A stretch of DNA of 64,000 bases from an uncultured delta proteobacterium (GTDB lineage Bacteria > Myxococcota > Myxococcia > Myxococcales > Anaeromyxobacteraceae): NCBI GenBank assembly GCA_963814585.1, contig CAWFDF010000010.1, forward strand, positions 128,001 to 192,000, written 5' to 3'. This document shows, piece after piece, positions 1 through 29,183 of the stretch. The notes under the pieces were generated by a model. The model was not told the DNA's origin. It was given only the letters and a program-made list of their open reading frames with translations, and searched no databases. Position 1 is the first letter of the stretch; the number at the start of each line of letters is the position of its first letter. The translations under genes were made by a program, and so were the position numbers.

Positions 1-856
1 CTCCGAGACCGGGCTGGCGGTCTCGGCCGGGGTGGCCGAGGTGAAGCTGGCGGCCAAGATCGCCACCGACCTCGGCAAGCCGGACGGGCTGGTGGTGGTC
101 CCGGCCGGCGGGGTCGCGGCCTTCCTGGCGCCGCTGCCGGTGGGGCGGCTCTGGGGCGTGGGCGGCGTCACCGAGGCGGCGCTGCGTCGCATCGGCGTCG
201 CCACCATCGGCGACCTGGCGCGCCTGCCGGAGTCGGCGGTGGGCGCGGCCCTGGGCGCCGACCGGGCGCGGGGCCTGCGGGCGCTGGCGCGGGGCGAGGA
301 CGACCGCGAGGTGGTGCCGGACGAGGCGGCCCGGAGCGTCGGCGGCGAGGAGACCTTCGAGCAGGACCTGGTGGGCGAGGCGGCGCTGGCGCGGGCCCTG
401 CTGCTGCAGGCGGGGCGGGTGGGGCGGCGGCTGCGGTCCGCCGGGCTGCGCGGCCGGATCGTGACGCTCAAGGTGAAGTACGCGGACTTCACGCAGGTGA
501 CCCGGAGGGTGACGCTCCCGGCGGCGACCGACGACGACCGGCTCATCTACCGGACGGCGCGCGACCTGCTGGCCCGCATCGAGGCCGGCCGGCCGGTCCG
601 GCTGGCGGGCGTGACGGTCTCCGGCTTCGGCGAGGAGGGCGAGCCGGAGGCCGGGCAGCTCGACCTCTTCGGTGCCCCCGGCTCCGGCGGGGGCGCCGAG
701 GCCCAGCCGGTGGCGTCGGCGCGTCGGCAGGCGCTCCACGCCGCCCTCGACAGGCTGGCCGACAAGTACGGCGAGCGGACGGTGGCGCCGGCCGACCTGT
801 CCGACCGGGGCGAGGCCGAGCGCTGGCCGGTCCACAGGCGGCGCGACCGGGAGTGA
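1..856 (+). CDS. dinB: DNA polymerase IV (Y-family), 5'-truncated by window edge
   Basis: Open frame from the window start: ETGLAVSAGVAEVKLAAKIATDLGKPDG, LWGVG HhH, little-finger VTLKVKYADF, clamp motif QLDLF at 656-670. Confidence 0.92.
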   Translation, partial: SETGLAVSAGVAEVKLAAKIATDLGKPDGLVVVPAGGVAAFLAPLPVGRLWGVGGVTEAALRRIGVATIGDLARLPESAVGAALGADRARGLRALARGEDDREVVPDEAARSVGGEETFEQDLVGEAALARALLLQAGRVGRRLRSAGLRGRIVTLKVKYADFTQVTRRVTLPAATDDDRLIYRTARDLLARIEAGRPVRLAGVTVSGFGEEGEPEAGQLDLFGAPGSGGGAEAQPVASARRQALHAALDRLADKYGERTVAPADLSDRGEAERWPVHRRRDRE

Positions 857-25041: not shown

Positions 25042-26411
25042 TGTCCGGGGTGAATCCGGTCGTCTTCCGGGAGTACGACATCCGCGGCGTGGCGGGCGTC
25101 GACCTCACCGAGGAGACCGTGGGGCTGGTGGCGCGCGCGCTGGGCACCAGGGTCCGCGCCGCCGGCGGCCAGGTGGTGGTGGTGGGGCGGGACGTCCGGC
25201 TCTCCAGCCCGGCTTTCCACGGCCAGGTGGTGGCGGGGCTCACCGCCACCGGCTGCGACGTGGTCGACCTCGGCGTGGTCCCGACGCCCCTGGTCTACTT
25301 CGCGGCGCAGACCATGGCCGTGGACGGGCTCTGCATGATCACCGGCTCGCACAACCCGGCCGACTACAACGGGATGAAGATCGGGGTGGGCCCGACCACG
25401 CTCTACGGCGAGGCCATCCAGGAGATCCTGCGGATGGTGCAGCAGGGCCGGTTCGCCAGCGGGCAGGGGAGGGTGACGGCGCACGACATCGTCGCCCCTT
25501 ACCAGGACCGCGTGGTGGGGAACATCCAGCTCGGTCGCCGCCGGCTCAAGGTGGTCATCGACGCCGGCAACGGCACCGGCGGCGTCGCCGTGCCCATCTT
25601 CCAGCGGCTCGGCGTCGAGGTGGTCCCGCTCTTCATCGAGCCGGACGGCCGCTTCCCCAACCACCACCCCGACCCCACCGTGGAGAAGAACCTGGAGCCG
25701 CTGAAGCGAGCGGTGCTGGAGACGCGCGCCGACCTCGGCATCGCCTACGACGGCGACTCGGACCGGGTGGGCGCCGTCGACGAGAAGGGGCAGGTGCTGT
25801 GGGGCGACCAGCTCATGATCCTCTTCGCCCGCGCCATCCTCGCCGAGGTGCCGGGGGCGGCCATCGTCGCCGAGGTGAAGTGCTCCTTCACCCTCTACGA
25901 CGACATCGCCAGGCGCGGCGGCCGCGGCATCATGTGGAAGGCCGGCCACTCCCTCATCAAGGCCAAGATGAAGGAGGAGCACGCCGAGCTGGCCGGCGAG
26001 ATGAGCGGCCACATCTTCTTCGGGAACCGCTGGCTCGGCTTCGACGACGGCATCTACTCGTCGGCGCGCCTCGTCGAGCTGGTCAGCCGCACCGACCGGC
26101 CCCTGTCGACCCTGCTCGGTGACGTGCCGCGGACCTTCAGCACGCCGGAGCTGCGGGTCGACTGCCGGGAGGAGATCAAGTTCGAGGTGGTGCGCCGCGC
26201 CCAGGAGTTCTTCAAGCAGGGCTACCAGGCCATCACCGTCGATGGCGTGCGGGTGGTCTTCCCCGACGGCTGGGGGCTGGTGCGCGCCTCCAACACGCAG
26301 CCCATCCTGGTGCTCCGCTTCGAGGCCGTCACCGAGCCGCGGCTGGCGGAGATCCGGAGGCTGGTCGAGGATCGGGTCGGCGCCATCATCGCGGAGCTCG
26401 GCGGTCCGTGA
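25041..26411 (+). CDS. manB: Phosphomannomutase/phosphoglucomutase
   Basis: FREYDIRG, TGSHNP, DGDSDR, GEMSGH, RASNTQP. Confidence 0.93.
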   Translation: MSGVNPVVFREYDIRGVAGVDLTEETVGLVARALGTRVRAAGGQVVVVGRDVRLSSPAFHGQVVAGLTATGCDVVDLGVVPTPLVYFAAQTMAVDGLCMITGSHNPADYNGMKIGVGPTTLYGEAIQEILRMVQQGRFASGQGRVTAHDIVAPYQDRVVGNIQLGRRRLKVVIDAGNGTGGVAVPIFQRLGVEVVPLFIEPDGRFPNHHPDPTVEKNLEPLKRAVLETRADLGIAYDGDSDRVGAVDEKGQVLWGDQLMILFARAILAEVPGAAIVAEVKCSFTLYDDIARRGGRGIMWKAGHSLIKAKMKEEHAELAGEMSGHIFFGNRWLGFDDGIYSSARLVELVSRTDRPLSTLLGDVPRTFSTPELRVDCREEIKFEVVRRAQEFFKQGYQAITVDGVRVVFPDGWGLVRASNTQPILVLRFEAVTEPRLAEIRRLVEDRVGAIIAELGGP

Positions 26412-27391
26412 CGGCCCGGCTCGCCCTCGGCGTCGACCTCGGCGGGACCAACGCCCGCGCGGCGCTGGTCGATCCGGCGAGCGGCGTGGTGGTGGCGGCC
26501 CACAAGGTGCGCCACGTCGAGCGGTCTCCGGAGGCGGTGGTGGCGACCATCGCCGCCGCGGTCCGCGAGGTGGCCAGGGCGGCCGGTGTCGAGGTGGCCG
26601 GGCTGGGGGCGGCCGGCGTCGGCGTGGCCGGCCAGTGCCTGGGCAGCACCGGCACCGTCCTCAACGCCCCCAACCTGGGCTGGCGCGACGTCTCGCTCGG
26701 CGAGCCGCTCCGCGCCGCGCTCGGGCTGGAGGTGCGGGTGGTCAACGACCTCTCGGCCGCGGCGTGGGGCGAGCTGCGCTTCGGGGCGGCGCGCGGTGTC
26801 GACGACGCGGTGCTGGTCTTCGTCGGCTCGGGCGTCGGCTCGGGCCTCATCCTCGGGGGCCGGCTCCACGAGGGTGGGCGGGGCGTGGCCGGGGAGCTCG
26901 GGCACATCAAGGTGGCGCCGCGCGGCGCGACGCCGCGGCGCTGCGGCTGCGGCGAGTGGGGTTGCCTCGAGGCCTACGCCGGCGGGATGAACCTGGCGGC
27001 GCGGCTGCGCGACGAGGTGGCCGCCGGGAAGGCCGGCGGCGTGCTGGCGGCGGCCGGCGGCGAGCCCTCCGCGCTGTCGGCCTCGGCGGTGGAGGCGGCC
27101 TACGCCGCCGGCGACCCCTACGCCCGGGAGCTCTGGGCCGAGGTCGGCGAGCTGATCGGCACCGCCTGCGCCAACGTGGTGACGCTGCTCAACCCGCTGA
27201 GGCTCGTCCTCGGCGGCGGCGTGCTGCTGGGCTGCGGCAACCTGGAGCGGATCGTGCGCGCGCACGTCGCGGATCGCGCGCTGCGAGCGGCCCGGAGCGG
27301 ACTCGAGGTGCGGCGCTCCCAGCTCGGCGACGACGCCGGCGTGGTGGGCGCGGCGCTCCTCGGCGCGGCGCGACACTCGCACCAGAGGTGA
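26408..27391 (+). CDS. ROK-family sugar kinase (glucokinase/mannokinase-like)
   Basis: GVDLGGT, VVND, GELGH, CGCGEWGCLE. Confidence 0.9.
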   Translation: MTARLALGVDLGGTNARAALVDPASGVVVAAHKVRHVERSPEAVVATIAAAVREVARAAGVEVAGLGAAGVGVAGQCLGSTGTVLNAPNLGWRDVSLGEPLRAALGLEVRVVNDLSAAAWGELRFGAARGVDDAVLVFVGSGVGSGLILGGRLHEGGRGVAGELGHIKVAPRGATPRRCGCGEWGCLEAYAGGMNLAARLRDEVAAGKAGGVLAAAGGEPSALSASAVEAAYAAGDPYARELWAEVGELIGTACANVVTLLNPLRLVLGGGVLLGCGNLERIVRAHVADRALRAARSGLEVRRSQLGDDAGVVGAALLGAARHSHQR

Positions 27392-27507
27392 GATCGACCG
27401 CCCGATCCGATCACGGTCCGTGAAATCTGGCATCCGGAGGCGCTGGACCCATCCGGATCGTGCTGAGGGGAGCATGGATCGAGTGATCGATTTTCTCTTC
27501 GGCTTCC

Positions 27508-27536
27508 TTGACGGGATCGATCGCGCTTTGTAACGT
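27508..27536 (+). promoter_or_regulatory. Sigma70-type promoter upstream of the Lys-rich micro-ORF
   Basis: TTGACG (27508-27513), 17-nt spacer, TAACGT (27531-27536) in an AT-richer intergenic stretch. Confidence 0.65.
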
Positions 27537-27598
27537 GCATCCACATTGTCCATTCGTGAGTCACTCATGAAGTGAATGGACGTTCCGAGGAGGGAACT

Positions 27599-27664
27599 AT
27601 GGCTGCCAAGAAGAAGGCCGTGAAGAAGGTTGCGAAGAAGAAGACCGCCAAGAAGAAGAAGTAG
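27599..27664 (+). CDS. 21-aa Lys/Ala-rich micropeptide MAAKKKAVKKVAKKKTAKKKK (not in the ORF track)
   Basis: Strong RBS GAGGAGGG just upstream of ATG; 12 Lys codons, all AAG; own promoter and terminator. Confidence 0.8.
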   Translation: MAAKKKAVKKVAKKKTAKKKK

Positions 27665-27688
27665 CGATCGGTTCAGCAGCAGAGTGGT

Positions 27689-27722
27689 GCCGCGGCCGCC
27701 TTCGGGCGGCCGCAGCTTTTTT
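27689..27722 (+). terminator. Rho-independent terminator
   Basis: Perfect 9-bp stem GCGGCCGCC-TTCG-GGCGGCCGC (cUUCGg tetraloop) followed by AGC and six T. Confidence 0.8.
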
Positions 27723-27731
27723 GGGAGCCGC

Positions 27732-29183
27732 ATGTCGCTGACGGCGGTCGAGCTGGAGCTGGTGGTGGGGGAGCTGCAGGCGCTGCGCGGCGCGCGCGTC
27801 GACGCCGTGCGCGTCCACGCCGAGCGCGCCCTGACGCTGGAGCTGCACGGGCGCAGCGAGGCCGCGCTCCTGCTCCTCTGCGCCGAGCCCGAGGTGACCC
27901 GGCTCCACGTCAGCACCGTGCGCCCGGTCCAGCCCGCCAGCCCCTTCGCCTGGCAGGCACCGCTCCGCCAGGCGCTGGAGGGATCGCGGCTCGAGGCGCT
28001 GGAGCTGCAGGCCGGGGATCGGGTGGTGACGCTGCGCTTCGAGCGGGCCGGCGGCCGGGTCCAGCTGGTGGCGGAGCTGACCGGCCGCCACGGCAACCTC
28101 CTCCTCGTCGACGCCGGGGGCGTGGTCCGCTTCATGGCGTCGCGCGTCGCCGAGCCGGGGCGGCGCCTGGCCCCGGGCCTGCCCTGGACGCCGCCGGCGG
28201 CGCCGCGAGGTGAGCGGAGGGCCGGACCGCGCTTCGAGCCGGTGGCCGGCGCTTCCTTCCCCTGGTCCCTGGCGGTCGAGCGCCGCTACGCGGCGATCGA
28301 GGCGGAGCGGACGCTGGTCGAGGCGCGCCGGCGGCTGCGCGAGCCCTTGCGCGCGGCGCTGGCCCGGTCGAGGCGGGCGCTGGAGAGGCTGTCGGACGAG
28401 GCGGCCCGGGTGCCGGCGGCCGAGGCCGACCGGCGCGCCGGCGACCTGCTCAAGGCCAACCTCCAGGCCGTGACGCGCGGAGCCCGGGAGGTGACGCTGA
28501 CCGAGTGGACCGCCGACGGACCGGGCGAGGTGCGGGTGGCCCTCGACCCGGCGCTCACCCCGCGCCAGAACATGGAGCGCTTCTACCGGCGCTTCAAGCG
28601 GATCGCCGAGAGCGCGGCCCGGGTCGAGGCGCGGGCCGGCGAGGTCCGCGCCAGGCTCGAGGCCGTCGGGGCGCTGCTGGAGCGCGTCGACGGTGCGCCC
28701 CTGGAGGAGCTGCCGGCCATCGAGCGCGAGGCGAGGCGGCTGGCGGCCGGGCCACGGCCGGCGGCGAGGCCGCGCCGGCCGCGGGAGCAGGCCTCGCTGC
28801 CCTACCGGACCTTCCGCTCGGTGGCCGGCCTGGCCCTGCTGGTGGGGCGCGGCGCCGCCGAGAACGACCAGCTCACGCGGCGCGTGGCGCGCGGCAACGA
28901 CCTCTGGCTCCACGCTCGCGGGCTGGCCGGCGCCCACGTGATCATCCGCCTCGGCGGCCGGGAGGCCGACCAGGAGTCCCTCCTCGACGCCGCCCACCTG
29001 GCGGTCCACTTCTCCGACGCCCGCGGGGAGCCGCAGGTGGAGGTGGCCTGCACGCGGGCCAAGTACGTCCGCAAGGGGCGCGGCGCGGCCCCCGGCGCCG
29101 TCACCTACAGCCAGGAGCGGATGCTCCACCTCCGCACCGAGCCGGCGCGGCTGGCCCGGTTGCTGGCCGAGGAGGCGCCTTGA
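27732..29183 (+). CDS. rqcH: NFACT/Rqc2 family ribosome quality-control factor, 483 aa
   Basis: NFACT-N GDRVV and ELTGRHGNLLLVD; coiled coil with GDLLKANL; NFACT-R VGRGAAEND, DLWLHA, GAHVII. Confidence 0.85.
   Translation: MSLTAVELELVVGELQALRGARVDAVRVHAERALTLELHGRSEAALLLLCAEPEVTRLHVSTVRPVQPASPFAWQAPLRQALEGSRLEALELQAGDRVVTLRFERAGGRVQLVAELTGRHGNLLLVDAGGVVRFMASRVAEPGRRLAPGLPWTPPAAPRGERRAGPRFEPVAGASFPWSLAVERRYAAIEAERTLVEARRRLREPLRAALARSRRALERLSDEAARVPAAEADRRAGDLLKANLQAVTRGAREVTLTEWTADGPGEVRVALDPALTPRQNMERFYRRFKRIAESAARVEARAGEVRARLEAVGALLERVDGAPLEELPAIEREARRLAAGPRPAARPRRPREQASLPYRTFRSVAGLALLVGRGAAENDQLTRRVARGNDLWLHARGLAGAHVIIRLGGREADQESLLDAAHLAVHFSDARGEPQVEVACTRAKYVRKGRGAAPGAVTYSQERMLHLRTEPARLARLLAEEAP

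Follow-up and report, generated by a model that had tools for sequence, protein, structure and literature searches.

A lysine-rich micro-gene ahead of rqcH in Myxococcota, probably encoding a minimal H1/Hc2-like polycation

Why does a 21-codon, lysine-rich open reading frame (ORF) with its own predicted promoter and terminator sit directly ahead of rqcH? We address this question at a locus within 64,000 nucleotides (nt) of contig CAWFDF010000010.1 (assembly GCA_963814585.1) from an uncultured member of the Anaeromyxobacteraceae (Myxococcota), a stretch referred to here as the window and numbered from its first letter. A sequence-only reading of this DNA had described a promoter, a 5' hairpin, a strong ribosome-binding site, the 21-codon ORF, and a terminator, all of which are present, and had offered two accounts of them: a leader that senses stalling or Lys-tRNA and tunes rqcH, or an abundant minimal histone H1-like peptide with rqcH expressed on terminator leakage. 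The locus is laid out as follows.

27508..27513, + strand, -35 element TTGACG of a predicted housekeeping-sigma promoter (sequence)
27531..27536, + strand, -10 element TAACGT, 17-nt spacer to the -35 element (sequence)
about 27543, + strand, transcription start predicted from the -10 position
27548..27581, + strand, 5' leader hairpin P1, arms 27548-27555 and 27574-27581, in only part of the family
27582..27597, + strand, small hairpin P2 with GGAGG 27589-27593 in its loop (fold)
27589..27593, + strand, Shine-Dalgarno (SD) sequence GGAGG, 5 nt ahead of the ATG at 27599
27599..27664, + strand, micro-gene for the 21-amino-acid (aa) peptide MAAKKKAVKKVAKKKTAKKKK, ortholog of Myxococcus xanthus MXAN_6302 (sequence, synteny)
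27689..27722, + strand, intrinsic terminator with a 9-bp stem 27692-27713, a 4-nt loop, a one-mismatch extension, and six T at 27717-27722
27724..27727, + strand, rqcH SD GGAG, immediately 3' of the T-tract (sequence)
27732..29183, + strand, rqcH, 483 aa, NFACT-N, coiled coil, and NFACT-R, DR motif D96-R97 (domain search)

The ORF runs from the ATG at 27599 to a TAG ending at 27664 and contains 12 Lys codons, every one of them AAG. This uniformity, pointed out by the earlier reading, is real and uninformative, since AAG accounts for 99.1% of the Lys codons across 1,655 long ORFs (P for 12/12, 0.89). The downstream gene had been correctly named: it encodes NFACT_N and NFACT-R domains, and its profile matches Bacillus subtilis RqcH (E 6e-82); the two align at the DR motif, whose role is described in part of PMC8373112. 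Profile alignment also places about 90 residues after NFACT-N in B. subtilis RqcH that myxobacterial RqcH does not have. The T-tract ends 9 nt before the rqcH ATG (27732), which leaves no room for a promoter in between, as had been proposed.

We consider it probable that this locus holds a conserved, self-contained micro-gene for a disordered minimal H1/Hc2-like polycation, a predicted non-specific DNA/RNA binder, and that rqcH is expressed on a small, roughly constant leak through the terminator of that micro-gene. A strong constitutive, housekeeping-type promoter and a strong SD would yield a short mRNA, about 180 nt here by its predicted ends, that would stop at the stable GC hairpin; RNA-level data from Myxococcus orthologs show >99% of transcripts ending there, and some 0.06 to 0.08% would read on into rqcH. 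Once translated, as we infer it is, the peptide would display Lys pairs at a five-residue spacing and bind nucleic acid without sequence specificity. Dependence of rqcH on this leak, the presumed source of its mRNA, would account for the persistence of the adjacency while every other neighbor changes. Behind this reading stand observations on the sequence, its synteny, the composition of the peptide family, and the transcript levels of orthologs.

The promoter recurs with the ORF. Pairs of the form TTGACR-16..18-TANNNT occur at 51 sites in this 73% GC genome versus about 2 in a Markov simulation, and a TTG-16..18-TANNNT pair precedes 54 of 63 orthologous ORFs, with the -10 pattern T-A---T invariant across 17 family sequences. 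A consensus scanner did not list the promoter because its -10 element agrees at only 3 of 6 positions.

The link to rqcH extends to relatives. In 64 of 110 distinct rqcH loci, an ORF rich in Lys and Ala, complete with SD and GC hairpin, immediately precedes rqcH (gap, ≤135 nt), and 13 more carry the ORF at a longer gap; these counts include kin that are not independent, and the counting script overlooked at least three loci that carry the ORF (L064, L136, and L143; L and G numbers denote loci and genomes). By family label, the arrangement is direct in 10 of the 21 Myxococcota families examined, three of them outside the window's class; in an 11th, one gene lies between ORF and rqcH, and in the remaining 10 the ORF was not seen within about 4 kb. 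The flanking genes vary by family and include a ROK kinase, a glycosidase, a deaminase, and a cupin. In the window, the upstream neighbor is the following family-specific gene.

26408..27391, + strand, ROK-family kinase (domain search, synteny)

An acyl-CoA dehydrogenase gene lies near the locus in two distant families, so some plain inherited gene order survives at that depth. Outside the phylum, none of 27 rqcH loci from the phylum of a Nitrospirales genome has a Lys-rich ORF upstream, and a search of phages gave no match to the micro-gene.

Micro-gene and rqcH also occur apart. The complete promoter-SD-ORF-hairpin cassette is present in five genomes in which rqcH was not found (G028, G040, G051, G065, and G094), and rqcH occurs without the cassette in some relatives. 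In three of the five genomes in which rqcH was not found (L168, L169, and L170, from G051, G094, and G065, respectively), the cassette is divergent from a gene that by eye is UvrB-like. Other DNA intervenes between micro-gene and rqcH in several loci: an ATP-dependent DNA ligase gene in L067 and L072 (Pfam-checked), another ORF in L132, and, between T-tract and rqcH in L006, a 180-nt element bounded by long inverted repeats, much like a miniature inverted-repeat transposable element (MITE). L044:1-140, which stops just before the rqcH SD in the place of its relatives' terminator, resembles a group II intron at its 3' terminus. We also observe ligase-like upstream sequence abutting rqcH in eight Myxococcaceae-type loci (L055, L058, L065, L076, L078, L079, L088, and L101).

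The encoded peptides form a family by composition and by place. Across 65 distinct peptides, Lys makes up 39%, Ala 28%, Thr 13%, and Arg 7% of residues, with about 1% acidic, and in 60 of them no Lys run exceeds three. The autocorrelation of Lys/Arg is maximal at lag 5 (0.52, ortholog set), a five-residue charge period. Ortholog lengths range from 18 to 221 aa at one locus, only M1, K4, and K5 are invariant, the ORF starts vary (MAA, MPA, MAT, and MAK) with the terminator unchanged, and up to 15 non-Lys residues stand between the last Lys and the stop. The longest ortholog, of 221 aa (L077), passes the Pfam model HC2 (PF07382) with 52 bits at a cut-off of 40; further models of Hc2-like proteins are NF038052 and NF038053 of NCBIfam. 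On sequence grounds, the micro-gene would thus be Hc2-like by composition and by descent at one locus, not a formal HC2 member.

The resemblance is closest to Hc2 (HctB) of Chlamydia and BpH1 of Bordetella, for which the consulted part of PMC2848022 describes pentamers rich in Lys and spaced by Ala/Thr/Val/Pro, sizes that vary with the number of repeats, and few acidic residues. The micro-gene family shares the pentamer pattern with two basic residues, the size variation through repeat number, and the scarcity of acidic residues. It differs in that Hc2 and BpH1 measure 149 to 237 aa, whereas its members often have 18 to 30 aa and the 21-mer matches no model; in addition, what PMC2848022 says of Hc2 and BpH1 includes no fixed seat before rqcH, and DNA binding by the micro-gene product is a prediction. 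Disordered Lys/Ala/Pro repeats are also known from the tails of Pseudomonas AlgP and PhaF, which the relevant section of PMC11894788 presents as highly expressed and associated with nucleoid and polyphosphate; those repeats are tails on a folded N-terminal domain, whereas the micro-gene is the repeat alone.

Transcript levels come from M. xanthus, whose locus (L068) corresponds to DK1622 MXAN_6302 (MXAN_RS30530) in ORF length (240 bp), in the 97-nt gap to MXAN_6301, and in both upstream neighbors; MXAN_6301 is M. xanthus rqcH. Published tables and a 76-member Atlas cluster give the 79-aa MXAN_6302 the name "excinuclease ABC subunit A", a label that is a propagated misannotation. The earlier description of the peptide as un-annotated therefore stands in part: this ortholog is an annotated, though misnamed, coding sequence, and a 30-aa version of the window's peptide starting at an upstream GTG is a called protein in JGI/IMG. 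We took expression values from supplement rows of PMC6791715 (file 11), PMC8561891 (files 10 and 11), and PMC5857379 (file 1), and statements on expression refer to those rows. At 0 h, MXAN_6302 reaches 6,197/6,653 reads per kilobase per million (RPKM), whereas EF-Tu has 2,962/3,241 and the pilin MXAN_5783 has 3,846/4,125 (PMC6791715); rqcH, at 38 to 74 RPKM, is at the noise floor of this 98%-rRNA data set. In PMC8561891, MXAN_6302 shows 7,079/16,512/7,451/5,359/1,976 RPKM versus 10/16/13/7/5 for rqcH, with similar values in a fruA mutant and in Myxococcus stipitatus, and PMC5857379 gives micro-gene:rqcH ratios of 93 to 432. Across the terminator, transcripts step down 390- to 1,010-fold in wild-type M. 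xanthus.

In three series, rqcH follows the micro-gene (r = 0.94, 0.91, and 0.93; slope, 0.0006 to 0.0008), whereas a divergent control gene does not (r = 0.01, 0.37, and -0.32), a co-variation consistent with a constant leak above a low floor. After 2 h of starvation the micro-gene mRNA is up 2.3-fold and the mRNAs of L21, S21, and EF-Tu are down 4- to 10-fold; in the low-coverage set, L21 mRNA did not fall. The micro-gene:rqcH ratio of the Myxococcus orthologs is unchanged or higher in starvation. A rise early in starvation, with ribosomal-protein mRNAs falling, is in keeping with a protein that coats nucleoid or RNA as growth gives way to starvation. The account of an abundant minimal H1-like peptide with rqcH on leakage is thus supported by synteny, family composition, and the published M. 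xanthus RNA-seq.

The Cappable-seq supplement has no row for the M. xanthus locus, and no paper in the searched literature, which had subscription papers and most supplements outside its scope, names MXAN_6302, MXAN_RS30530, 6301, or the motif MAAKKK. The product of MXAN_6302 would be nearly invisible to tryptic proteomics. No exact match in a collection of 15 billion was returned for 17 of 18 family peptides, including an M. xanthus-type protein that the Atlas holds; since the look-ups missed that protein, absence there says nothing on annotation.

Proteins of this kind are known as H1/Hc2-like polycations; what is new here is how small they can be, their position before rqcH across the phylum, and evidence of expression in a tractable host. 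If the leak-fed polycation reading is true, a repeat-only H1-like protein can be as small as about 20 residues without being lost and can rank among the strongest transcripts of the cell, and the locus offers a concrete model of a low-copy rescue factor dosed by leakage from a very strong neighbor. Such micro-genes are overlooked by gene callers or given the wrong start; synteny connects them with the Hc2 family along an unbroken series of 18 to 221 aa, and the M. xanthus member, highly expressed, starvation-responsive, and misnamed in RefSeq-derived tables, makes the function of the class testable in a model organism.

Several observations weigh against this reading. The 21-aa peptide itself has no Pfam or NCBIfam match, being too short to score 40 bits; HC2 appears at E ≤ 0.1 in only 7 of 18 aligned members, its cut-off is passed by 1 of 8 long orthologs in one set and by 0 of 8 in another, and low-complexity matches to HC2 can be convergent. 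The expression data describe 79-aa-type Myxococcus orthologs from genomes other than that of the window; among RNA runs, the single one with a match shared 7% of words with this locus, and its contigs across the ORF proved to be Lys-rich sequences from other organisms. The co-variation rests on series of 5 to 6 averaged time points. In the low-coverage set, where rqcH is at the noise floor, its correlation is negative like that of the control (r = -0.74 and -0.83), and a third data set has the control gene following the micro-gene as well (r = 0.73), with scaling as a confounder. Upstream promoter patterns do not separate linked from unlinked rqcH (2/64 versus 2/33), and rqcH may have a weak promoter of its own. 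Finally, terminator and ORF DNA are conserved beyond controls, and a plain polycation gene offers no account of this. All of the family genomes (17 of 17) share an identical terminator hairpin, whereas two control terminators are identical in 7 of 17 and 3 of 15, with the stem base alone kept in 13 of 17 and 10 of 15; the 63 coding bases are unchanged among five genus mates, although 13 to 29% of the four-fold sites in their HU genes differ. Unusual weakness of the terminator was considered and rejected, since the T-tracts of the control terminators are equally short.

A broader version of the polycation reading is rather improbable in our estimation. It would make MXAN_6302 and the 21-aa peptide part of an overlooked, multi-phylum set of 10- to 35-residue poly-lysine equivalents of protamines and H1 tails, among the most abundant transcripts, with the rqcH link arising from a polycation that sits on ribosomes or tRNA in starvation and ribosome-associated quality control dosed by a leaky, invariant terminator, the peptide possibly replacing RqcP. 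A metagenome scan with the SD and first six codons as the query gave 126 matches, of which 53 are complete ORFs of 10 to 34 aa with at least 35% Lys; rqcH adjoins just 1 of the 44 Lys-rich ORFs that have >500 nt downstream (first 80 loci). In three of the metagenome loci (L236, L285, and L263), two to three poly-lysine micro-genes follow one another in tandem, and each carries an SD and a near-identical hairpin. As for RqcP, which according to part of PMC8012679 is needed for alanine tailing in B. subtilis, no stand-alone S4 protein (RqcP/Hsp15-like) was found with PF01479 and PF13275 in G000 (92% complete), G019, G132, and G120, genomes that do have RqcH. By length and sequence, the S4-domain hits (L381-L387 and L393-L414) look like S4, pseudouridine synthases, TlyA, and TyrRS.

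Could the polycation instead belong to the ribosome, as an extra small ribosomal protein or a starvation-phase coat of rRNA or tRNA, with the rqcH link reflecting shared ribosome-related regulation? bS22/mS38, eL41, and bTHX are tiny basic ribosomal proteins, and the short micro-gene forms (18 to 30 aa) match them in size and charge. Micro-gene transcripts are about as abundant as ribosomal-protein mRNAs, and no bS22/COX24 gene scored over the cut-off in 6 Myxococcota genomes. Part of PMC2848022 further reports that Hc2 binds RNA and represses translation. The micro-gene differs from bS22/mS38-type proteins in having no PF08213 match, fixed length, invariant core, or ribosomal-protein co-regulation: repeat expansion takes it from 18 to 221 aa with three invariant residues, unlike a protein fixed in an rRNA pocket, and its mRNA climbs as ribosomal-protein mRNAs drop, which argues against an ordinary ribosomal protein. 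A search of the PDB returned no related chain, and no solved ribosomal chain matches the family profile. We judge this alternative unlikely.

The ORF could also be a translation-sensing leader in which stalling on Lys runs, or failed translation, opens the terminator and so attenuates rqcH in unsampled conditions, a proposal that we regard as highly improbable. Attenuator leaders of the trpL and ermBL type have a promoter, a short ORF, a terminator, and a gene, a layout shared by the micro-gene locus and retained in 10 of 21 families, and the invariance of the terminator hairpin beyond its controls and of the ORF DNA among the five genus mates would suit such control. Folding at successive ribosome positions speaks otherwise. 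For 63 of 76 loci (in the other 13 no proper hairpin or T-tract was picked), the terminator has a probability of at least 0.5 in 60 without a ribosome and in 62 at all sampled ribosome positions; its pairing probability in the window is at least 0.98 at every position, and untranslated RNA is able to disrupt it in 3 of the 63 loci. No conserved antiterminator was found over 25 loci and then over 63, and the pairing that it had noted between GGCTGCC at the ORF start and a terminator arm is not retained where the ORF start differs (MAA, MPA, MAT, or MAK under a constant terminator). A leader whose length varies 12-fold, whose last Lys codon may lie 15 codons before the stop, that is parted from rqcH by a ligase gene or other DNA in four loci, and whose cassette persists where rqcH was not found, as rqcH does without the cassette, departs from trpL/ermBL-type systems, which have fixed control codons and a constant length. 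Derepression on amino-acid starvation is likewise not borne out in M. xanthus, where starvation does not lower the ORF:rqcH ratio (704 at 0 h and 1,010 at 2 h, 390 to 1,010 overall; in a second comparison, 146 to 186 starved versus 93 to 167 fed), and just 1 of 44 look-alike metagenome micro-genes adjoins rqcH. An attenuator leader is therefore disfavored, and we do not present the locus as a new attenuator.

There is scarcely any probability that the short RNA, with its 5' hairpins, sequestered SD, and invariant 3' hairpin, is the functional product and the peptide secondary: terminator and 5' hairpin are invariant and the 63 coding bases show no change among genus mates, but the 5' hairpins are clade-restricted, the frame grows and shrinks by codon-sized repeats with its amino-acid composition conserved, no Rfam match to the region comes near the gathering score, and the stem base is kept in control terminators too. 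Small conserved mRNAs have been described in the alphaproteobacteria as rreB/rreR, with a 14- to 18-codon ORF, an extended SD of 16 to 17 nt, and weak translation; the micro-gene resembles them in being a small conserved mRNA and has an SD of 5 to 7 nt, and the portion of PMC5711450 on rreB/rreR leaves Lys richness unmentioned. Equally hard to credit is a peptide that acts as a cofactor of RqcH in place of RqcP, in a lineage seemingly without it, since persistent adjacency to rqcH and the lack of a stand-alone S4 protein among the PF01479 hits of four genomes face a 400- to 1,000-fold transcript excess over rqcH, micro-gene and rqcH that are each kept without the other, and no S4-like fold or conserved residues.

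Minor features of the leader remain. In P1, 98.4% of cells are paired and 1 of 8 pairs is changed on both sides (16 distinct sequences), and the hairpin is clade-restricted, being absent from L009, L011, L012, L014, L015, and other families. P2 has no covariation support because its pairs are nearly invariant. The SD in its six-base loop resembles a CsrA site; CsrA-type control of the looped SD was rejected, as no CsrA gene was found in the genome. A 37-codon ORF (27420-27533) that overlaps the promoter in the 56% GC intergenic stretch is probably spurious.

We also observe other small basic genes. The genome itself contains two more tiny Lys/Arg-rich ORFs with an SD, L330:373-501 (minus strand, 43 aa) and L331:380-484 (minus strand, 35 aa), which have no Pfam match and are possibly unrecognized micro-proteins. 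In five loci (L099, L102, L106, L108, and L109), rqcH is followed by an oppositely oriented Lys-rich repeat gene for 100 to 140 aa, which is divergent from genes of the CarD-like and RNase E/G types (checked with Pfam in L099 and L102).

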